64,000 nt of DNA from an uncultured Candidatus Saccharibacteria bacterium (GTDB lineage Bacteria > Patescibacteriota > Minisyncoccia > Phycocordibacterales > DATGWK01). A program made the translations under genes and the position numbers. The notes beneath the pieces are model-generated. The model saw only the letters and a list, made by a program, of their open reading frames with translations. It ran no database searches and was not told the DNA's origin. Below are positions 5,791-64,000 of the stretch, in pieces; position 1 is the stretch's first letter; every line of letters begins with the position of its first letter. The stretch is from positions 3,621 to 67,620 of the forward strand of contig CAZBJL010000004.1 in the NCBI GenBank assembly GCA_964492195.1, in the 5' to 3' direction.

Positions 5791-6900
5791 ATGTCAATAA
5801 TACTTTTCGTCGTAATACTCGCAGTTCTCATTGTTGTTCATGAGTTCGGGCATTTTTTAGTAGCAAAATTATTCGGCATTCGCGTCGATGAATTCGGTGT
5901 TGGGTATCCGCCCAAAGCACTTACTCTCTTTACGTGGATGGGAACGAAGTTTACTTTGAACTGGCTTCCTTTTGGTGGCTTCGTGAAGATTTTTGGCGAA
6001 AATGGTATGGAACCAGAAACAACCATTTCATCTGACTCTTCTGCATCAGGTAAAAGTTTTGTCGCTGCTCGTCGGCCCGCACAGGCGCTTGTTCTGTTGG
6101 CCGGTGTAACCTTCAATATTATTTTTGCTTGGATTTTAATTTCCCTTGGTTTTATGGTTGGTTTGCCAACGCCTGTAGATTCTGTTGCAAATCATAGCGA
6201 TGTGAAAAATGCTCATCTAGTAATTACAACTGTTTCTGCAAACTCACCAGCGCTTGAGGGCGGGCTTAAAAGCGGGGATTCCATTACTGCTGTTTCCACT
6301 GAAAAAGCGACAGTGAAAGAACTCACTCCAGAAGCAGTTTCTGCATTTATTGCAAATCACGGTGAAGAAAAAATTAGTGTTGGGTATAGCCGTGGAAAGG
6401 AAAATGGAACTGTTACTATGTCACCACAAGAGGGAATTATCCCAAATCGAAAAGCGGTTGGAATTTCTATGGATATAATCGGCACTCTCTCTTTGCCAAT
6501 TCATAAGGCACTATGGGAAGGTGCACAAACGACTGGTAACCTCGCGGTGATGACTGCGGCAGGGCTTGGTACTTTTATATATGATGCATTCCGCGGTTCT
6601 TCTGATTTTTCTCAAGTTACTGGTCCCGTTGGAATTGTTGGTCTTGTGGGGGACGCATCGAGACTTGGGTTTGTGTATCTCATTTCATTTACTGCGTTTA
6701 TCTCCATAAATCTTGCGGTAATCAATCTCGTTCCGTTTCCCGCACTCGACGGCGGAAGACTTCTCTTTGTCATTATTGAATCAATCAAACGCTCACCAAT
6801 TTCTCCAAAAATCACCAATATCGCAAACGCCGCCGGTTTCATTCTACTCATTGGACTTATGGTTCTTGTGACAGTTCACGATGTGTTTAAGTTATTCTAA
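5791..6900 (+). CDS. rseP: Site-2 protease RseP (M50 zinc metalloprotease with PDZ domain)
   Basis: HEFGH zinc motif in TM1, central PDZ-like segment, C-terminal LDGG motif (NLVPFPALDGGRL). Confidence 0.9.
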   Translation: MSIILFVVILAVLIVVHEFGHFLVAKLFGIRVDEFGVGYPPKALTLFTWMGTKFTLNWLPFGGFVKIFGENGMEPETTISSDSSASGKSFVAARRPAQALVLLAGVTFNIIFAWILISLGFMVGLPTPVDSVANHSDVKNAHLVITTVSANSPALEGGLKSGDSITAVSTEKATVKELTPEAVSAFIANHGEEKISVGYSRGKENGTVTMSPQEGIIPNRKAVGISMDIIGTLSLPIHKALWEGAQTTGNLAVMTAAGLGTFIYDAFRGSSDFSQVTGPVGIVGLVGDASRLGFVYLISFTAFISINLAVINLVPFPALDGGRLLFVIIESIKRSPISPKITNIANAAGFILLIGLMVLVTVHDVFKLF

Positions 6901-6952
6901 ATTCGTTACGTTTTGGTAGACCGTGCGGAGTTTTTCCTGTAATATGTTGTCG

Positions 6953-8206
6953 ATGCGTCAATCAACTCTCTTCACAAAAACTCGAAAAGAAGCTCCCAAA
7001 GATGAAGTGGCAAAAAATGCCGAACTTTTGATTCGAGCCGGGTTTGTTCACAAAGAATTAGCGGGCGTCTATTCTTTTTTGCCTCTTGGTCTTCGCGTTT
7101 TAAATAAAATTGTTGCAGTTATTAGAAAAGAAATGGTTGACCTTGGTGCCGAAGAAGTCTCTCTCGCTGCGATTCAAGATAAAAATACCTGGGAACAAAC
7201 AAATCGATGGAGCGATGCAGAAATGGACGTGTGGTTTAAAACTGAACTCAAAAATGGCACACAGGTTGGACTTGCTCCAACACACGAAGAGCCGCTCACA
7301 AAACTCATGAAGGATCACGTTCGTTCGTATCGTGATTTGCCTCGCTCCGTTTTTCAATTCCAAACAAAGTTTCGAAATGAAACTCGCGCAAAAAGTGGCA
7401 TCATGCGTGGCCGTGAATTTTTAATGAAAGATTTGTATTCTTTTTCTGCTGACGAAAAAAGTCATCAGGAATTCTACAATAAAGTTTCAGACGCATACCG
7501 CCGAATTTTCGATACAGTCGGAATTGGTTCAAAAACATTTTTAACGCGTGCGTCGGGCGGATCATTTTCAAAGTTCTCACACGAATTCCAAACGGTGTGC
7601 GACTCCGGCGAGGACACTATTTATACTCATGCGGATTCTGCTTTTGCGATCAATGAAGAAATTCATGGATCAGAAGAAGCCTTTGAAGGTACAAAAATTT
7701 CAAAAGAAGATTTCAAACCGCAAAAATCAATCGAAGTCGGTAACATTTTTAACCTCGGTACTCGTTTTTCTGAAGCACTCGGACTCACATTCCTCGATGA
7801 CAAGGGCAAACCTCAACCAGTAATTATGGGGAGCTACGGTATTGGTCCAGGAAGAGTAATGGGAACGATTGTAGAAGTGTTGTCCGACGAAAAGGGAATT
7901 GTGTGGCCAGAATCTGTTGCACCATTTACAGTTCATCTCATCGAAATTTCTGGAGCAGATGAAACTCACGCCGTTGCTGAAAAATTATATAAAACACTTA
8001 CACAGCTCGGACATGAAGTTTTGTACGACGATCGCGATCTTCGTCCCGGCGAAAAATTCGCTGACTCTGACCTCATCGGTATTCCGTATCGTGTCGTTGT
8101 GAGTGACAAAACAATAGCGGCTGGCGGTATCGAAGTTAAAAAAAGAATCGAAGAAAAAACAAACATTATTTCAGAAAAAGACCTCATCTCACTGCTTTCA
8201 GAATAA
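6953..8206 (+). CDS. proS: Prolyl-tRNA synthetase (short bacterial form)
   Basis: Class II aaRS motifs with the ProRS N-terminus (MRQSTLFTKTRKEAPKDEV.AELLIRAGF...FQFQTKFRNETR...GREFLMKD). The track ORF starts at GTG 6923; ATG 6953 aligns with ProRS starts. Confidence 0.9.
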   Translation: MRQSTLFTKTRKEAPKDEVAKNAELLIRAGFVHKELAGVYSFLPLGLRVLNKIVAVIRKEMVDLGAEEVSLAAIQDKNTWEQTNRWSDAEMDVWFKTELKNGTQVGLAPTHEEPLTKLMKDHVRSYRDLPRSVFQFQTKFRNETRAKSGIMRGREFLMKDLYSFSADEKSHQEFYNKVSDAYRRIFDTVGIGSKTFLTRASGGSFSKFSHEFQTVCDSGEDTIYTHADSAFAINEEIHGSEEAFEGTKISKEDFKPQKSIEVGNIFNLGTRFSEALGLTFLDDKGKPQPVIMGSYGIGPGRVMGTIVEVLSDEKGIVWPESVAPFTVHLIEISGADETHAVAEKLYKTLTQLGHEVLYDDRDLRPGEKFADSDLIGIPYRVVVSDKTIAAGGIEVKKRIEEKTNIISEKDLISLLSE

Positions 8207-56042: not shown

Positions 56043-57830
56043 CTACGATAGAGTAGCTTTGATTCTCCTCACACCTGCAGACACGGCTTCTTCTTTTGCG
56101 ATTGTGAAAGTACCAAGTTCACTCGTACGTGTCACATGCGGGCCACCACAGATTTCTCTGCTGAAAATTCCCGTTTCTTCATTGCCAATTGTATAGACAC
56201 GAACAATATCTGCGTATTTTGCACCAAACACACCTTCGGCATTGAGTTCGCGTGCTTCCTGAAGCGGCATTTCTTTGAACGTAACTTCGAGGTCCTTCGC
56301 GATCACTGAATTAATAAGACCCTCAACTTCTTTCTTCTCAATATCAGTTAGTTTGGCGGTGTGGGCAAAATCAAATCGAAGCCGTTCAGGTGTAATGTTG
56401 CTTCCCTTTTGTTCAACATGACTTCCCAATACTTTTTTTAGAGCAGCGTTTAAAAGATGGGTTGCGGTGTGGTACTGAACAGATTTTTCACTTGTATCAG
56501 CAAGACCGCCTTTGAATTTTTGTTCGGAACTAGAGCGAGAAAGATCCTGGTGTTTCTTAAATTCATCATCGATTGCCGCAACATCAACAGTAATTCCCTG
56601 TTCTTTGGCCAATTCAATCGTAAGATCAACCGGAAAACCGAAACTTGAGAACAACGTGAAAACTTCTTTAGTAGAAATTGCGCCATTTCGAGACAATTTC
56701 GAAAATTCTTTAAGACCACCTGCGAGAGTTTTTCTGAATTTTATTTCTTCTTCAGAAATAACAGAAATAATTAGGTCAAAAACAGCAGAAATATTTTCGT
56801 AGACCTGTGCGTATGTTTTTGGAATAGTTTCAGCGATTTTTAAGATTCCACCTTCTTCTATTCCAAGGCTATCAGCAAATCGAACTGCTCTTCGGAGAAG
56901 ACGGCGAAGAATATAGCCCCGATCAGTGTTAGAAGGAGTAACTCCATCGGCAATCATAAAAACACTCGTACGAATATGGTCGGCGACGATTCTTTCAACA
57001 CGAATATCACTTTTTTGTGCCAATGCGCGAACTGCTTCAATAGTAGGAGCGAGCAAATCTGTTTCAAAAATACTGTCGACGTTTTGCATAATAATTGCGA
57101 GACGTTCGAGACCAGCTCCGGTGTCGACATTTTTCTGCTTCAATTTTCCAACGAGTACACCGTCCCGTTTCTCGTATTCCATAAAGACGTCGTTCCAAAT
57201 CTCTACAATTTTTTGTTCAGAATCAGCTTTGTTAAAAGCGTCAACATTTTCTAATTCACCAACGGTTCCGGTAATGTCGTAAAACATTTCGGTGCTTGGT
57301 CCGGTAGGGCCGGTCCACGTATCTTTTCCTTTTACAGACGGCCACCAGTTTGAATCCACACCTTTATAGAAAATTCGACTTTGTGGCAAACCAGCTTTCA
57401 TCCAAAGAGCAACAGACTCATCATCTCGTGGAATTTTTTCATCTCCTTCAAAAACAGTCACATACAGACGCGCAGGATCGAGTCCAAGACCTTCGGTTTT
57501 TGATGTTAAAAATTCATAACTCCACGCAATTGCTTCTTCTTTGAAATAACTGCCAAGAGACCAGTTTCCAAGCATTTCAAAAAAGGTGGCGTGAGTTTTG
57601 TCACCAATGTCTTCGATATCCGTCGTTCGAACGCATTTCTGAACATCGACAATTTTGTCGCCGTTTGGGTGTTTTTCACCCATAAGGTATGGCACGAGCG
57701 GCTGCATGCCGGCAGTATTAAAAAGGACGCTTGGGTCATTAACCGGGACAAGCGATGCGGATGGAATAATCGTATGCCCACGATTCTCAAAAAAAGTAAG
57801 GAATCGTTTTCTGATTTCGGACGATGTCAT
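56043..57830 (-). CDS. alaS: Alanyl-tRNA synthetase lacking the C-terminal C-Ala domain
   Basis: Start at MTSSEIRKRFLTFFENRGH... (the upstream track extension overlaps the udg gene). Catalytic and tRNA-recognition domains are present. Editing-domain motifs HTATHLL and CGGPHV are present. The protein ends about 600 aa in (...GVRRIKATLS). Confidence 0.9.
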   Translation of the reverse strand: MTSSEIRKRFLTFFENRGHTIIPSASLVPVNDPSVLFNTAGMQPLVPYLMGEKHPNGDKIVDVQKCVRTTDIEDIGDKTHATFFEMLGNWSLGSYFKEEAIAWSYEFLTSKTEGLGLDPARLYVTVFEGDEKIPRDDESVALWMKAGLPQSRIFYKGVDSNWWPSVKGKDTWTGPTGPSTEMFYDITGTVGELENVDAFNKADSEQKIVEIWNDVFMEYEKRDGVLVGKLKQKNVDTGAGLERLAIIMQNVDSIFETDLLAPTIEAVRALAQKSDIRVERIVADHIRTSVFMIADGVTPSNTDRGYILRRLLRRAVRFADSLGIEEGGILKIAETIPKTYAQVYENISAVFDLIISVISEEEIKFRKTLAGGLKEFSKLSRNGAISTKEVFTLFSSFGFPVDLTIELAKEQGITVDVAAIDDEFKKHQDLSRSSSEQKFKGGLADTSEKSVQYHTATHLLNAALKKVLGSHVEQKGSNITPERLRFDFAHTAKLTDIEKKEVEGLINSVIAKDLEVTFKEMPLQEARELNAEGVFGAKYADIVRVYTIGNEETGIFSREICGGPHVTRTSELGTFTIAKEEAVSAGVRRIKATLS

Positions 57831-57852
57831 GGAAGCATTATACGTGGCCTCG

Positions 57853-58479
57853 CTATACAAGAGAAGCGATGACTGCAAAATCTTTTTTAAGCCCCCCTTT
57901 TGTACCACCGTTATACAGAGCCACCGCTGGATGGTAGAGTGGAACAATTTTTACTTTTCCGTATGAAACAGTGGCTTCATAAATCTTGCCATGAGCCTGG
58001 GAAATCGGCAGGATTTCAGATTCAAGACCGAATTTTTTCATAATATATACCATCGAAAAACGCCCAAGCGTTGCAATTACTCTTGGCTTAATAATGTCGA
58101 TCTGACGGTCCAAAAATGGTCCGTAGAGTGCAATTTCATCTGGAAGTGGATCACGATTATTTGTCGGTCGATCCTTCACAATATTTGTTACATACACTGA
58201 TCCGCGCGGCATATTGATAGAAGCAAGAAGTTCATCCAAAATTCTACCCGACGCGCCGCAAAATGGCCGGCCGGTTTCAGCTTCATTTTTACCAGGAGCT
58301 TCGCCTATAAACATTATTTTTGCGAAATGGTCGCCTTCCCCAATTACAGGATGTGCCTTGTTTGCAATTCTCTCCTTATACAGTGGCGATACAGAAAAAT
58401 TTAATACGTCATCTTTCACTTGCTTCATACGCTCGTGACGATTTTCTACGTCTTTAGTTTGTTCGAGTTCGGACGTCAT
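57853..58479 (-). CDS. udg: Uracil-DNA glycosylase, family 4
   Basis: GEGDHFAKIMFIGEAPGKNEAETGRPFCGASGRIL: the family 4 UDG signature (GEAPG..E...G.PF.G.AG). Confidence 0.85.
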   Translation of the reverse strand: MTSELEQTKDVENRHERMKQVKDDVLNFSVSPLYKERIANKAHPVIGEGDHFAKIMFIGEAPGKNEAETGRPFCGASGRILDELLASINMPRGSVYVTNIVKDRPTNNRDPLPDEIALYGPFLDRQIDIIKPRVIATLGRFSMVYIMKKFGLESEILPISQAHGKIYEATVSYGKVKIVPLYHPAVALYNGGTKGGLKKDFAVIASLV

Positions 58480-58762: not shown

Positions 58763-59614
58763 TTAGAAAAGTGGTTGATTTGAATCCTTAATTTTTTTCA
58801 CATTTTTGGGAACTGATTTTGTTTTCGGCTTTTTAGTTTCAGAGTGAGGAGTTATTTCTGGTAATCCAGCTTCGCTCTCAACAAGAATAATATATGAACA
58901 ATATTCGCAATCACTATTGCCTGTGGGAATTTTTTCAGACATCAAACACTCTTTAATATCGTGCAGCGTTTGATCAATCCACCCATCATTGCCTTCGTAG
59001 GGAATAACAGCAACATCAAATTCTAGTTTGCCATCGAACGCTTCCTTGTCCGTTTTGCCGTTTACATATACAAAATACCCAACATTAGAAACCTTGAAAT
59101 CATTCTGCCTAAAAAGCCATTGGTATATTTCCATTTGGCGTTTATATTGAATTTTCCACTCATCATCAAGCGTAATTTTGCCTTCTTTACTTGTTGCTTT
59201 GTAGTCAACGATAATTAATTCGCCGGAAGGAGTAACCCAGACATCATCAATACCTCCGCGGATAAAAAGATTGGTTGGTTTGTGGAGGGTCGCAATACCG
59301 CGTTTGAGAGCATCGCGCCACTCCTCCATTCTTTCATGCTTAAAAGGTACTGCATCAATCTTGTACGCTTTCATTAATGGATGAGCAGCTTGCTTTGTTC
59401 GATACACGTCGAATTCCTTTTTGAGAAGTAAATCGACAGCGCTGTTGAGAGCGAACGGTGGACCTTTCGGACGCGAAACACCTCTACAGCTATCGAGATA
59501 AAAACATCGCTGACACTGCGTAAAAAGCTCGATTTTTGTGCGGCTTAATTTGAATGGATCTTTTGATTTTCTGTCAAAAAGGTACCATTGTCTCTTTTTT
59601 GCAGGAAACGGCAT
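58763..59614 (-). CDS. Cas4/RecB-like PD-(D/E)xK nuclease with Fe-S cluster cysteines (standalone)
   Basis: N-terminal Cys cluster (CQRCFYLDSC). GGIDDVW...IIVDYKAT (D...D.K core). QYKRQMEIYQWL (QxxxY). C-terminal Cys (C...CEYC). No CRISPR array or other cas genes in the window. Confidence 0.65.
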   Translation of the reverse strand: MPFPAKKRQWYLFDRKSKDPFKLSRTKIELFTQCQRCFYLDSCRGVSRPKGPPFALNSAVDLLLKKEFDVYRTKQAAHPLMKAYKIDAVPFKHERMEEWRDALKRGIATLHKPTNLFIRGGIDDVWVTPSGELIIVDYKATSKEGKITLDDEWKIQYKRQMEIYQWLFRQNDFKVSNVGYFVYVNGKTDKEAFDGKLEFDVAVIPYEGNDGWIDQTLHDIKECLMSEKIPTGNSDCEYCSYIILVESEAGLPEITPHSETKKPKTKSVPKNVKKIKDSNQPLF

Positions 59615-59620
59615 GTAAAA

Positions 59621-60451
59621 TTAAATATTGTTTACTTCCTCAACTATTTTTTCTGCACGATCTTTTGGTAAACCAGCATCTATGAGGATTGAGGTGTTAT
59701 TGCGAATTTGTTTGCAGAGCACAATTCCTTGTTGAAGGAGCGATTTCAATTCCCCACTATGGATTTCAGTAAGACACGTAATGGGCATGAGGTCACCGTC
59801 TTCGATCATAGATTGCAAACTTACGTCACCCGGATAATTCCAGCCGATCATTGTCATGTTTTTGCAGAGTCCGTATTCGATCGCAGTGGAAGTAAAACCA
59901 GTGTTGGTGATTAGCCACGCTTCGTTCAGTGTTCGGCGTTTATTGCCGTAAAAATGCGTCACTTCAAGCAAATCATCGAATCTTGCCTTTACGTAAAGCG
60001 CAACCTTCAAATCGCATTTCATTCCACGCTGATTGTGAAATTTTGCTTCACACATAATAAGTTTTTTATCGTTCCAGGCAACAACGTCAACTTCATGCTC
60101 AACACAACCACCTTTCACAATTTGATTTGTTTCCGCAGAATAGCCTTGGCTTCTAAAAATTTCAGCGACATACTTTTCAAATGGAAATCCGGAAGGACCA
60201 AGAGCAGAAACGGCTTGTCGCATTCCGTATCGATATGAAGCAGGAGTTTGAAATTTATGCAAAAGGAAAAAGGCGTGTTTGTAGATTTGGGCGGTCGTCG
60301 TACCATCCACTAATTCCTTTTGAACGTGGTCGATGATTTTACTAACAATTTCAGGACTTGCTTTCGCCGCTGTAAGCGATTTCTCGAGCTTACTTGGGTC
60401 AAACTGTTCCAATTGGCCATTGGCCTTCAAAACATTCGGTATATTGGTCAT
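59621..60451 (-). CDS. ATP-cone domain fused to a restriction-endonuclease-like (Mrr_cat-type PD-(D/E)xK) domain
   Basis: Residues ~5-90: VLKANGQLEQFDPSKLEKSLTAA...IVSKIIDHVQKEL...TTAQIYKHAFFLL (ATP-cone pattern). Then GYSAETNQIVKGGCVEHEVDVVAWNDKKLIMCEAKFHN (D/E...ExK endonuclease core). Confidence 0.6.
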   Translation of the reverse strand: MTNIPNVLKANGQLEQFDPSKLEKSLTAAKASPEIVSKIIDHVQKELVDGTTTAQIYKHAFFLLHKFQTPASYRYGMRQAVSALGPSGFPFEKYVAEIFRSQGYSAETNQIVKGGCVEHEVDVVAWNDKKLIMCEAKFHNQRGMKCDLKVALYVKARFDDLLEVTHFYGNKRRTLNEAWLITNTGFTSTAIEYGLCKNMTMIGWNYPGDVSLQSMIEDGDLMPITCLTEIHSGELKSLLQQGIVLCKQIRNNTSILIDAGLPKDRAEKIVEEVNNI

Positions 60452-60460
60452 GTTTTTATT

Positions 60461-61456
60461 TTACCTTAAATAGAGTTGTTTGTTTTTCACATGTTCAGAA
60501 AATGTCGAAGCATAATGCATCTTCCCCGCACCATCTGACAAGAAATAGTAATACGTGGTTTTCTCTGGGGTAATTGTCGCAAGGATAGAATCAAGTCCTG
60601 GATTCGCAATCGGTGTTGGCGGAAGCCCAGGATTTTTGTAGACGTTATACGGAGAATCATCAGCAAGGTCAGCTCGGGTAAGTTCCGCGGTTGTTTTGCC
60701 GTTAATGTATTTAAACGCAACATCAACTTGAAGAGGCATTCCTTCATCAATTCGTTTCCAGAGAATACCAGCAATAATTCGTCGAGTTTCGAAATCTCGC
60801 GCTTCAGTTTCGACAATCGACGCCATCGTAATAATGTCATCCACACTTTTTCCAAATTCTATAATTTCTTTTTCGTGAAGTTTTATATGAACGTCAAAAT
60901 TAACTTTCATGGTTTCGATCGCTTTTTTCGATGTCACGTTTGGAGCAAAAAAGTATGTGTCTGGAAATAAATACCCTTCCGGAGCGGTCAGAAGAAACGT
61001 TTCAATATCAAAATGAGGCAAACGACGGACAAGCAACTGCCCAATTTCAAATTTATTAAGACCTTCCGGGATCGTAATTTTTACGGGCTGTATGTTGAAT
61101 TTGCCGTGCACAACTCTCTCGGCAATAGAATACGCGGACAGCGGCTTCTCAAACATATAATCCCCTGCAATAACTCCAGAACCTTCAAGAAAAATACCAC
61201 CGACAATGGCCTCAAAAGCTAATTCGGAGCGAATATATCCTTTTGATCTCAAGGATTTTGCAATTTCTGAAAGAGTCTGGCCACTTTCTATTGTAAAAAT
61301 TTCATCGGATGTAAACGCATCGGACGGAGCGATCAGAAAATAAAGCACGATACATACGAGAAACAGAGCAAAAACCACGCCAACAAATATCTGAAAGCGA
61401 GAAGATACTCTGAAATCCCGGTACGACTGAAATTGATTCATGAGTCGATCCATCAC
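60461..61456 (-). CDS. mltG: Endolytic murein transglycosylase MltG (YceG-like)
   Basis: N-terminal TM, YceG domain with ...DSPYNVYKNPGLPPTPIANPG... signature. Confidence 0.85.
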   Translation of the reverse strand: MMDRLMNQFQSYRDFRVSSRFQIFVGVVFALFLVCIVLYFLIAPSDAFTSDEIFTIESGQTLSEIAKSLRSKGYIRSELAFEAIVGGIFLEGSGVIAGDYMFEKPLSAYSIAERVVHGKFNIQPVKITIPEGLNKFEIGQLLVRRLPHFDIETFLLTAPEGYLFPDTYFFAPNVTSKKAIETMKVNFDVHIKLHEKEIIEFGKSVDDIITMASIVETEARDFETRRIIAGILWKRIDEGMPLQVDVAFKYINGKTTAELTRADLADDSPYNVYKNPGLPPTPIANPGLDSILATITPEKTTYYYFLSDGAGKMHYASTFSEHVKNKQLYLR

Positions 61457-62688: not shown

Positions 62689-62780
62689 GATTTATTATAA
62701 CAAATTACGGTATATGCCTATACAAAACAATCCCCTGATTTCTCAAGGGATTGTTAAATCTATTCACAAAGAGGCTGTAT

Positions 62781-63830
62781 TTAAGCTAACGAGTACCGAT
62801 TCTGTTTGTCTTTTTTGAAGAATTTTGAATTCTGGAGGTTCACAAGAATGGTGTTTGGTTTCACGTATCGTTCCGTAAGTACCTTCTCAATGATTTTTTC
62901 CTTTGTAAGCGGACCATCCTTTTCGAGAATCTTTTTGATGACGTCTTTTACAACACCGCTCATATATCCCCACTCTGCGAGCGCATAGAGACCACGACCA
63001 ACAAGAACAAAACGAGGATCTTTAATGAGTTCGTTGTGTGTTGTTGCAACGTGCGCTTTTTTATTGAACACTTCTGTGATCAAACGAGCAACTTCACGGA
63101 AATGAATTGGAGAACCATGCTTTCGAATAACGAGAAACGCGTAATCTCGAACACCACGAGCATTGATGTTTGAAGATCCTGATTTACCCCATTCACCGAG
63201 CGGGTTTTTATTCAAAGACTTTGACATCCAGAGCCAACGCTTGATGACTTCTTCATTTTTGTACTCTTCGGAAACGTCTTTAATGTAAGAAAGGAATGAT
63301 TCGATGATTGTTGATTCTGGAACGATCGCATCGTCGTCGAGATCACTGTAAATCTTTCGGAGTGTTTCGTGAATTTTTTCGGCAAGCTTGTTGTCGATAT
63401 GCCAATGAGTTTTGAACTCTTCGTCTTCTTTATATTTTTTGAAATCTTCACCAACAACAAGGAGGAAATGAGTATGGTTTTGAGTAGATTTATCAGAAGA
63501 AAATTTATTTAAGAGGTCGTGCTCGGAAAGTACGCCACCAAGTCCAGAAAGATGCTGTTTCAATTCCTGAAACGCCTTCGTTTCTTTTTCGTACTCTTTT
63601 GATTTTCGAATATTGGTAATCGAGTGGTTTTCAATCTGACGAACTCGCTCACGAGTGATGCCGTATTTTTTACCAATTGATTCGAGTGTCATTTTCTTTG
63701 TTTCGGTACCGAGACCGTAACGGCTTGAAACAACATCGCGTCCGCGCTCAGAGAGAACTCCGAGTAAACGTTTCGTTACCTGCTTTGGATTAAATGACGG
63801 TGTTATTTGTTTTGTTTTCTTTTCACTCAT
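62781..63830 (-). CDS. Sigma-70 region 4 domain fused to a C-terminal HARE-HTH domain (putative transcription regulator)
   Basis: Start at ATG (MSEKKTKQ...); the track's TTG-start extension runs through the promoter. Region-4-like VLSERGRDVVSSRYGLGTETKKMTLESIGKKYGITRERVRQIENHSITNIRK. C-terminal HARE-HTH-like ...AFLVIRKHGSPIHFREVARLITE...RFVLVGRGLYALAEWGY. Confidence 0.65.
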   Translation of the reverse strand: MSEKKTKQITPSFNPKQVTKRLLGVLSERGRDVVSSRYGLGTETKKMTLESIGKKYGITRERVRQIENHSITNIRKSKEYEKETKAFQELKQHLSGLGGVLSEHDLLNKFSSDKSTQNHTHFLLVVGEDFKKYKEDEEFKTHWHIDNKLAEKIHETLRKIYSDLDDDAIVPESTIIESFLSYIKDVSEEYKNEEVIKRWLWMSKSLNKNPLGEWGKSGSSNINARGVRDYAFLVIRKHGSPIHFREVARLITEVFNKKAHVATTHNELIKDPRFVLVGRGLYALAEWGYMSGVVKDVIKKILEKDGPLTKEKIIEKVLTERYVKPNTILVNLQNSKFFKKDKQNRYSLA

Positions 63831-63865
63831 GATTTTTAATCGGCCTTTAATATAATTACGACAAA

Positions 63866-63894
63866 TTTTACTATCATTGCTGAAATTAGTCAAT
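63866..63894 (-). promoter_or_regulatory. Sigma-70-type promoter (TTGACT-17-TAAAAT) for the sigma-r4/HARE-HTH gene
   Basis: On the minus strand: ttgact (63894..63889), 17-nt spacer, taaaat (63871..63866), about 35 nt upstream of the ATG. Confidence 0.4.
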
Positions 63895-64000
63895 ACGTCT
63901 TGACATAAAGGCAAAATTTAGCCAATTACGAAGTTAATCAACTTATTTTTAACAAAAATCACCTTCTTGATTGTGGCTCCATTAAGCCATTTTTTTACAT

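Follow-up and report, generated by a model that had tools for sequence, protein, structure and literature searches.

A Patescibacteria protein family that joins a sigma-70 region 4 to four predicted winged helices

In full-length sigma factors, the N-terminal regions mask DNA binding, and region 4, when isolated, binds the DNA of the -35 element (Protein Data Bank (PDB) entry 1ku7). Sigma factors that are split between two proteins also exist. Here, we analyze a gene, called sigma4-WH below, that lies in a 64-kb stretch of DNA from an uncultured bacterium (contig CAZBJL010000004.1, assembly GCA_964492195.1); this whole stretch is referred to as the window, and coordinates of features are positions within it, on the minus strand. 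The product of this gene contains a sigma-70 region 4 at its N terminus and a HARE-HTH domain further on. From the results presented below, we conclude that the gene is complete and not a broken sigma factor and that its product belongs neither to the sigma factors nor to the delta subunits of RNA polymerase.

Patescibacteria, or candidate phyla radiation (CPR) bacteria, hold a large share of bacterial diversity in tiny genomes with few recognizable regulators, and the control of their transcription is barely known. The closest described gene is SEML1_0294 of the Saccharibacteria member Southlakia epibionticum ML1, which is 1050 bp long, encodes a protein of 349 amino acids (aa), and was named 'RpoS' by PROKKA (PMC10633639, Tables S1 and S2). 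This protein has PF04545 at aa 27-72, PF05066 at aa 225-283, and three 'winged' domains in the parse of those authors, and it is flagged as a member of a core family (of Meheust et al.) that is enriched in Patescibacteria (PMC10633639, Wang et al. 2023). When transposon insertions were sequenced (Tn-seq), SEML1_0294 scored as essential at all three time points (24 insertions in the input versus 1, 1, and 2 after selection), in an organism that also has a complete, essential RpoD; it is tabulated as essential and not discussed in the text (PMC10633639). We regard SEML1_0294 as the apparent counterpart of the window gene, matched to it by length and domain coordinates only.

In full-text literature searches, we found no paper that discusses a sigma-4 plus winged-helix architecture. 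The family is known, under a name from the NCBI annotation pipeline (PGAP), and uncharacterized. Each of the two domain types has been described before; in the literature that we found, there is no description of how the five modules are arranged, of the phyletic pattern of the family, or of its apparent essentiality. It is an example of the -35-reading module of a housekeeping sigma factor reused outside a sigma factor, and it offers a concrete entry into CPR transcription, as the apparent counterpart is essential in the sole CPR organism with genome-wide fitness data, one that is genetically tractable.

The sigma4-WH protein and its family

The mechanically called open reading frame (ORF) at 62781-63914 on the minus strand has a TTG start and encodes 377 aa, and an internal ATG at position 63830 gives a protein of 349 aa. 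The TTG extension starts 4 nt past the leuS stop codon and translates across the promoter described below. Relatives begin at the ATG (one at 90% identity starts with MSEKNSKQITPSF, at this same ATG), a 349-aa protein identical to that of the window is present in a public collection (P0001), and nearly all of its 120 closest relatives have 341-355 aa, so the preference of an earlier note on this DNA for the ATG start was correct; the upper bound of 63894 given there for the gene takes in the promoter.

By comparison with Pfam, we identified Sigma70_r4 (PF04545) at aa 22-76 (E 2.6e-13, 49.7 bits against a cut-off of 24.1) and HARE-HTH (PF05066) at aa 229-287 (E 2.7e-7, 31.3 bits against a cut-off of 25.9). 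The earlier note had called both domains, and the peptide that it quoted, ...SRYGLG...TLESIGKKYGITRERVRQIENHSI..., is found in the translation. Matches in NCBIfam and among PDB sequences are confined to region 4 of RpoD- and RpoS-type sigma factors (aa ~16-81), and only 14 residues lie ahead of region 4. No match to regions 1.2, 2 (PF04542), or 3 was found in the window protein or in an alignment of 138 diverse family members (0/138), which confirms the lack of regions 2 and 3 that had been noted before. When the 64-kb window was searched by tblastn with a CPR RpoD, the region-4 stretch of the sigma4-WH gene was the sole match, and no complete sigma factor is recoverable. The proposed kinship of the HARE-HTH domain with the delta subunit of RNA polymerase is borne out and is weak by sequence: the delta-subunit model TIGR04567 of NCBIfam gave 22 bits against a cut-off of 42, and a profile of the family matched Staphylococcus aureus delta with E 0.05. 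Some members of the family carry the name 'delta subunit' from the Joint Genome Institute (JGI).

An AlphaFold2 model of the protein, built on the 138-sequence alignment, has a mean predicted local distance difference test score (pLDDT) of 97.2 and a predicted template-modeling score (pTM) of 0.89 and forms one compact body. In this model, a four-helix region 4 is followed by four units with the H-E-H-H-E-E order of a winged helix, so that the predicted protein shows five helix-turn-helix-type modules. The two-domain layout described earlier was therefore right about the two domains and incomplete as to the whole. When scanned alone against Pfam, winged helices 1 and 2 had no matches, and winged helix 4 matched HARE-HTH with E 0.042. 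In Foldseek searches of the PDB, region 4 superimposed with a root mean square deviation (rmsd) of ~1 Å on primary and stationary-phase (RpoS) sigma factors (3n97, 1ku3, and 6ido, for example) and with 2.4 Å over 53 columns on 1ku7, the isolated domain on -35 DNA. The body past region 4 matched tandem winged-helix proteins with low template-modeling (TM) scores, and it also matched delta.

The diverse family members in the alignment are 33-59% identical, and their conservation peaks at two places that correspond to two recognition helices, TRERVRQIE in region 4 and T(V/T)HNELIKD, together with the wing RFVLVGRGxYAL, in the HARE-HTH domain, the latter helix and wing being near-invariant. Columns that are invariant in all 138 sequences are R37, L49, G53, R60, E61, R62, R64, and Q65 in region 4 and G215, N266, L268, G278, G280, Y282, and T327 in the C-terminal half. 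Residues R60, E61, R62, R64, and Q65 align to R584, E585, R586, R588, and Q589 of Escherichia coli sigma70, which are the residues that read the -35 hexamer. The CPR RpoD encoded beside dnaG in one related locus (L022) has the helix TRERIRQIE, with a conservative I-for-V change, and is 44% identical to the sigma4-WH protein over 62 residues.

Members of the family are basic, with a mean net charge of +13 and a pI of 9.3 (+16 for the window protein); by module, the family means are +4.9 for sigma-4, +4.6 for HARE, and +5.1 for winged helix 4. The window protein ends 1 residue past winged helix 4, the median extension in the family is 1 aa, and there is no acidic tail. With TIGR04567 below its cut-off, no acidic tail, and a basic charge, the assignment of the protein as a delta subunit was rejected.

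The 120 nearest relatives all have the same layout (120/120), and nearly all are 341-355 aa long; several are named 'sigma factor-like helix-turn-helix DNA-binding protein' by NCBI. An exhaustive HMMER search of 1.84 billion representatives of 50%-identity clusters returned 595 cluster representatives at E<=1e-30, and nearly all of the matches listed align end to end and have 325-390 aa. All 138 diverse members match Sigma70_r4, and 135/138 match HARE-HTH (E<=1e-3, best E 1.6e-17). A search seeded with a Peregrinibacteria protein recovered another tight clade (338-385 aa, >=69% identity), and identity among the 120 nearest relatives is at least 68% in each of the two clades. The family thus reaches across deep CPR lineages, with slow evolution inside each of them.

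When genomes were scanned with the full-length alignment, true sigma factors dominated the output because they match the TRERVRQIE pattern, and the 13 family loci obtained are not a census; for the scan of metagenomes, a C-terminal-only alignment was used instead. In the genomes of GTDB species, all 13 of the full-length matches listed come from CPR or unclassified metagenome-assembled genomes, with Paceibacterota, Kaiserbacteria, Doudnabacteria, and Peregrinibacteria among the lineages; source names add Campbellbacteria, Parcubacteria, and Gracilibacteria. The restriction to Patescibacteria that had been raised as a question thus holds in everything sampled. Some members are labeled 'Candidatus Nanoarchaeia archaeon', 'Gammaproteobacteria bacterium', or 'Candidatus Saccharibacteria' though they are 57-89% identical to Paceibacteria-type proteins; these few odd labels probably reflect mis-binning or default taxonomy, and such names need care. 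A search of the viral structure database BFVD found no viral analogue.

Two further observations concern the family. On one Gracilibacteria contig (L167), two sigma4-HARE paralogues of 375 and 366 aa (positions 123-1250 and 6001-7101 of that contig) lie 4.7 kb apart, and the first adjoins a Trans_reg_C response-regulator-like gene. A 659-aa SecF-sigma4-HARE 'fusion' (P0177) is most likely read-through from a neighbor or a gene-call artefact, and we treat it as uninformative.

The predicted promoter and transcription unit of sigma4-WH

The earlier note had proposed that sigma4-WH has its own promoter, TTGACT-17-TAAAAT (Table 1). This sequence is present, matches the consensus at 10/12 positions, and is the best promoter-like site in the region; counted against shuffled sequence, promoter-like sites in 3 kb numbered 4 where 6.9 were expected, and the site alone is not above chance. 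What makes the promoter credible is that its elements recur in related loci. A forward TTGAC lies within 150 nt upstream of the start in 77/84 of them, mostly at 40-130 nt; 66/78 family promoters have a 17-nt spacer; and the -10 element is usually of the extended type, TGnTAnAAT. Beyond this extended -10 TG, no other conserved DNA motif was found by the -35 and -10 elements in the 78 aligned family promoters.

The -35 hexamer of this promoter is paired with a second, inverted hexamer core to give GTCAA-N6-TTGAC; no other TTGAC/GTCAA pair in the window is spaced by less than 30 bp. A second TTGAC or GTCAA within 30 bp of the -35 element occurs in 28/79 family promoters; among other promoter-like sites of the same sequences, the count is 7/149 (odds ratio 11 and p 3e-9 by Fisher's test, for loci that are phylogenetically related). 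Among intergenic controls, 3/32 were doubled, and two of these are the same inverted repeat read from the opposite strand. The offsets between the two hexamers cluster at 9-12 bp for direct and at 11-13 and 26-29 bp for inverted arrangements. This doubling is a possible autoregulatory site for the region-4 domain. As a separate observation, three Peregrinibacteria/Gracilibacteria loci (L017, L166, and L167), whose proteins are ~70% identical, share a conserved (A)AATTTCTTGC 10-25 nt upstream of the -35 element, abutting TTGACA, a candidate UP-like element or regulatory site.

A terminator-like hairpin follows the sigma4-WH stop codon. Its folding energy is -17.6 kcal/mol alone, and that of the 86-nt stretch 62700-62785 is -23.3 kcal/mol (z -3.55); 50/84 loci have a hairpin with a U-run past the stop codon, in many cases with -24 to -32 kcal/mol. 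In an Rfam search of the 60-64 kb interval, positions 62694-62773 of the plus strand matched the Brucella small RNA BSnc120 with 26.5 bits against a gathering threshold of 114; this match is to the complement of the hairpin and was attributed to chance. Downstream of the hairpin, an extended -10 element stops 5 nt short of the ATG of the gene that comes next, which encodes a DUF8128 protein, and a TGnTAnnnT sequence ends 5-8 nt before this ATG in 19/63 loci. This arrangement suggests that DUF8128 may be expressed as a leaderless mRNA from a promoter of its own.

Upstream, the 3' end of leuS was assigned by its alignment with the end of the 962-989-aa leucyl-tRNA synthetase (LeuRS) gene of a relative at 90% identity, and a relative at 72% agrees. 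LeuRS is encoded upstream on the same strand in 45/62 related loci; in three loci from more distant lineages (L012, L013, and L015), the upstream neighbor is secF and not leuS. Downstream, mltG is usually the next gene after DUF8128 in related loci. The sigma4-WH gene had also been placed at the head of a >17-kb co-directional run. That run does extend for ~18 kb downstream, and the position at its head was not upheld, because leuS and further genes precede sigma4-WH on the same strand. With its own promoter, the hairpin, the promoter-like site of DUF8128, and leuS upstream, we place sigma4-WH as a self-contained unit within the co-directional stretch and not as its head; to judge from these signals, it looks like a transcription unit that runs from its own promoter to its own hairpin.

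Table 1. Coordinates of sigma4-WH, its modules, its signals, and its neighbors in the window
Feature	Position	Strand	Details
leuS 3' end (leucyl-tRNA synthetase)	63918..64000	-	Runs off the window; stop codon TAA at 63920-63918
Second hexamer core GTCAA, inverted	63900..63904	-	With the -35 element: GTCAA-N6-TTGAC, 63904-63889
Putative -35 TTGACT	63888..63893	-	Consensus scan
Putative -10 TAAAAT	63865..63870	-	17 nt past the -35 element; predicted 5' untranslated region ~28 nt
sigma4-WH coding sequence	62781..63830	-	349 aa, ATG start, stop codon included; region 4 and four predicted winged helices
Sigma-70 region 4	aa 15-77, 63600..63788	-	Pfam E 2.6e-13; Foldseek rmsd ~1 Å
Recognition helix TRERVRQIE	aa 59-67, 63630..63656	-	Corresponds to E. 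coli sigma70 T583-E591
Winged helix 1	aa 84-145, 63396..63581	-	AlphaFold2 model; no Pfam match; near-neutral or acidic
Winged helix 2	aa 147-216, 63183..63392	-	AlphaFold2 model; no Pfam match
Winged helix 3 (HARE-HTH)	aa 227-287, 62970..63152	-	Pfam and AlphaFold2 model
Winged helix 4	aa 294-348, 62787..62951	-	AlphaFold2 model; basic, weakly HARE-like
Terminator-like hairpin	62718..62754	-	Hairpin 62754-62727 (13-bp stem), then UUUGUAUAG
Extended -10 TGTTATAAT	62694..62702	-	Ends 5 nt before the DUF8128 ATG
DUF8128 membrane protein, 409 aa	61459..62688	-	VirB4 N-terminal-domain-like; conserved downstream neighbor
mltG (YceG-like)	60461..61456	-	Pfam E 2.1e-68; third in the order leuS / sigma4-WH / DUF8128 / mltG after leuS

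Possible functions of the sigma4-WH protein

The reading that we favor, tentatively, is that the sigma4-WH protein binds TTGAC-type hexamers directly and so modulates promoters used by sigma-A, including its own. Direct binding of double-stranded DNA is preferred because the DNA-reading residues are invariant and the protein is basic. The helix-turn-helix of region 4, with the R-E-R-x-R-Q residues of a primary sigma factor, would read TTGAC(A/T) as in a -35 element, since its recognition residues are the same and there are no N-terminal sigma regions to mask DNA binding. The basic HARE-HTH domain and winged helix 4 would make a second DNA contact, and winged helices 1 and 2 might act as a rigid spacer or as a module for protein contacts. 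Occupancy of -35-type hexamers would then modulate initiation by the sigma-A holoenzyme, with feedback on the strong promoter of the gene itself, where the hexamer is often present twice.

Several points weigh against this proposal. The doubled hexamer is present in about a third of loci, in direct and inverted arrangements, and these loci are related; tandem or divergent promoters could also have caused the doubling. There is no further paired hexamer in the window, hence no visible regulon. Unless kept under tight control, a protein that occupied all -35 elements should be toxic. Region 4 in isolation is also able to dock on the tip of the beta flap of RNA polymerase, and the HARE-HTH domain of delta binds the polymerase and not DNA (PMC7749165). 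A polymerase subunit would account for the essentiality and the strong conservation no less well than a regulator would, and the essential gene, SEML1_0294, was matched to sigma4-WH by length and domain coordinates only, not by sequence.

A second reading, possible though doubtful in our estimate, is that the protein is an accessory factor docked on RNA polymerase, whose region 4 would sit on the beta-flap tip helix of the core enzyme or holoenzyme and compete with or replace region 4 of sigma-A. The winged helices would touch the polymerase or upstream DNA, making the protein either an essential subunit specific to CPR bacteria or a competitor resembling an anti-sigma factor, in line with the 'RNAP-associated regulator or anti-sigma-like mimic' suggested in the earlier note. 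For such a mimic, the evidence is the shared fold of region 4. In Foldseek comparisons, region 4 also superimposes with ~1 Å on sigma-A region 4 in complexes with a beta-flap-tip chimera, and some chains of these chimeras align over 104-112 columns, with TM scores up to 0.72. The longer alignments may, on the other hand, mean that helices 78-96 of the protein already fill the flap-binding groove. Docking on the polymerase would also suit an apparent Saccharibacteria counterpart that is essential and belongs to a core CPR family, the slow evolution within each clade, and a strong consensus promoter with an extended -10 element. A pure competitor for the flap, however, would not need invariant -35-reading residues, and because CPR RpoD has retained a region 4 whose recognition helix is the same, promoter specificity would be unchanged. 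The positive overall charge, the lack of an acidic tail, and the TIGR04567 score below its cut-off speak against this reading as well. The flap tip and the delta site (the beta' jaw) are on opposite faces of the enzyme and the model is compact, which suggests that the protein would not bridge the two.

An unlikely but far-reaching variant combines both ideas and makes the protein an essential, lineage-specific component of basal transcription in Patescibacteria, a 'region 4 in trans' that would act at the -35 elements of most promoters, through DNA or the beta-flap. If this were true, the winged-helix array would recruit or organize RNA polymerase, and a general transcription factor would be added to the sigma-core scheme; it would possibly link promoters to the DUF8128/coupling-protein-like membrane protein too.

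This membrane protein is itself the basis of another reading, which we consider improbable: that sigma4-WH is a DNA-recognition or adaptor partner of DUF8128 that tethers specific DNA or hands it over, or that it is the dedicated regulator of DUF8128. The adjacency of the two genes is conserved: DUF8128 comes immediately after sigma4-WH in 66/70 loci from metagenomes and 13/15 from genomes, at protein identities as low as 35%, and DUF8128 stays linked to the sigma4-WH gene across three CPR classes. An AlphaFold2 model of DUF8128 (pLDDT 86.6) has N-terminal membrane helices, and its best PDB matches by Foldseek are to TrwK/VirB4 of the R388 type IV secretion system (E 3.5e-5 to 4e-4, TM 0.30-0.37), a likeness of fold that counts in favor of this reading. 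An ATPase-bearing form would fit this as well: in Peregrinibacteria/Gracilibacteria, a protein of ~825 aa that combines DUF8128 with T4SS-DNA_transf/TrwB_AAD_bind is encoded ~5.7 kb downstream on the same strand. Coordinates related to this fusion are 12764-13077 in L166 and 12523-13101 in L167.

The gene directly downstream of SEML1_0294 in S. epibionticum encodes a 921-aa coupling-protein-like ATPase with an unannotated N-terminal part of 360 aa, and it is non-essential (PMC10633639). DUF8128 in Saccharibacteria is probably also fused to an ATPase of the coupling-protein type. That this neighbor is non-essential at all time points and the sigma4-WH gene of the same organism is essential counts against a joint function, as do the hairpin and separate promoter between the genes, which point to separate transcription. 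In addition, lineages of the Paceibacteria type, whose DUF8128 proteins are short (400-530 aa) and lack a Walker A motif, have lost the ATPase part while sigma4-WH stayed highly conserved, and in the Peregrinibacteria loci, either other genes (dnaE, aspS) intervene or the neighbor went undetected in the stretch examined. The two genes differ in essentiality and have separate transcription signals, which argues for an essential role of the sigma4-WH protein that is independent of its DUF8128 neighbor. The conserved pairing still bears on 'orphan' coupling-protein homologues. A 2025 survey noted thousands of these in CPR genomes, far from virB4 and possibly exapted, and raised the question of their role; it also described TrsD as an abundant VirB4 N-terminal-like protein (PMC12102498).

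It is far less probable that sigma4-WH is the region-4 half of a two-subunit sigma factor of the Bacillus SigO-RsoA type, which would pair with a separate region-2 protein in an alternative holoenzyme. A split of this kind would be consistent with a region 4 that is complete, has its DNA-reading residues intact, and lacks an accompanying region 2. No region-2-like neighbor was found in ~95 loci, where the neighbors are leuS or secF and DUF8128, nor elsewhere in the window; the recognition helix is the housekeeping one, which does not imply a new promoter class; and 270 winged-helix residues have no counterpart in split sigma factors.

The probability that the gene is a truncated or frameshifted sigma factor or a gene-calling artefact is close to nil: the isolated region 4 and the PROKKA name 'RpoS' of the Saccharibacteria gene are all that speak for it, against ~595 clusters at 50% identity with the same layout and with conserved length and N terminus (most listed representatives having 325-390 aa), a leuS end directly upstream, 88 nt from the start codon, a model pLDDT of 97, and an apparent counterpart that is essential by Tn-seq.

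The remaining window and comparison with known systems

The remainder of the window is an ordinary CPR chromosome, with genes for penicillin-binding proteins, aminoacyl-tRNA synthetases, DnaB, DnaK, MurA, and ribosomal proteins. At 59621-60451 (minus strand) lies a gene for a 276-aa protein with an ATP-cone, a Mrr_cat restriction-endonuclease-like core, and an AF1548-like C-terminal domain, and the fusion of an ATP-cone to a nuclease is unusual. It is followed by genes for a PD-(D/E)XK nuclease (58763-59614) and a glycosylase of the uracil-DNA glycosylase (UDG) superfamily (57853-58479), and this trio is kept in the relative at 90% identity. The alaS ORF (56043-57947, minus strand), called with 634 aa from a TTG start, shares 95 nt with the UDG gene. 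Because its relatives have 592-594 aa and the Pfam match begins at aa 44, its true start is probably ~40 codons downstream. The segment 50248-53084 (minus strand) encodes ribosomal proteins S13 and S11 by Pfam and then ORFs sized as S4, RpoA, and L17, so that the gene for the RNA polymerase alpha subunit, by ORF size only, is probably in the same co-directional stretch.

Among known systems, region 4 of group-1 sigma-70 factors is nearest to the N-terminal module (Thermus aquaticus sigma-A, 1ku7; E. coli sigma70, residues 540-613). It has the same fold, with best matches at ~1 Å, and the same helix TRER(V/I)RQIE, and the DNA-contact residues are invariant in the sigma4-WH family; to judge by sequence, the protein would work in the manner of a primary-sigma region 4. 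In contrast to sigma-70 factors, the sigma4-WH protein has its region 4 at the N terminus, lacks regions 1.2, 2, and 3, and has four predicted winged helices in addition. Because these regions are missing, the protein alone cannot bind the core clamp or melt a -10 element.

With the delta subunit (RpoE) of Firmicutes, the protein shares the HARE-HTH winged helix and its D-x-RF...G...W/Y-x-L...W motif. The HARE-HTH domain is N-terminal in delta and is the fourth of five domains in sigma4-WH (aa 229-287 of 349). The polyanionic C-terminal tail of delta has a net charge of -47 (PMC7749165), compared with +13 and no tail for the sigma4-WH family, and the HARE recognition helix HNELIKD is specific to this family and unlike that of delta.

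The string of winged helices in the body of the protein is matched by the C terminus of SelB, Dcc1, Rpc5/RPC62, and UFL1-DDRGK1 (Foldseek E 2.6e-5 to 3e-2). With TM scores of 0.15-0.25 and identities of 9-13%, these tandem winged-helix scaffolds are alike in architecture only, and homology to them is not claimable.

Systems in which a protein other than a complete sigma factor supplies promoter recognition or flap binding in trans include the two-subunit SigO-RsoA of Bacillus subtilis and, as phage sigma-4 surrogates or appropriators, T4 gp33 and AsiA/MotA. These differ from sigma4-WH, which has no partner gene, no implied new promoter specificity, and no likeness to them in sequence or fold outside region 4. 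SEML1_0294 of S. epibionticum belongs to another CPR class and has a downstream neighbor that keeps its ATPase, and it resembles the window gene in its length, in the positions of its domains, and in the coupling-protein-like gene that follows it on the same strand.

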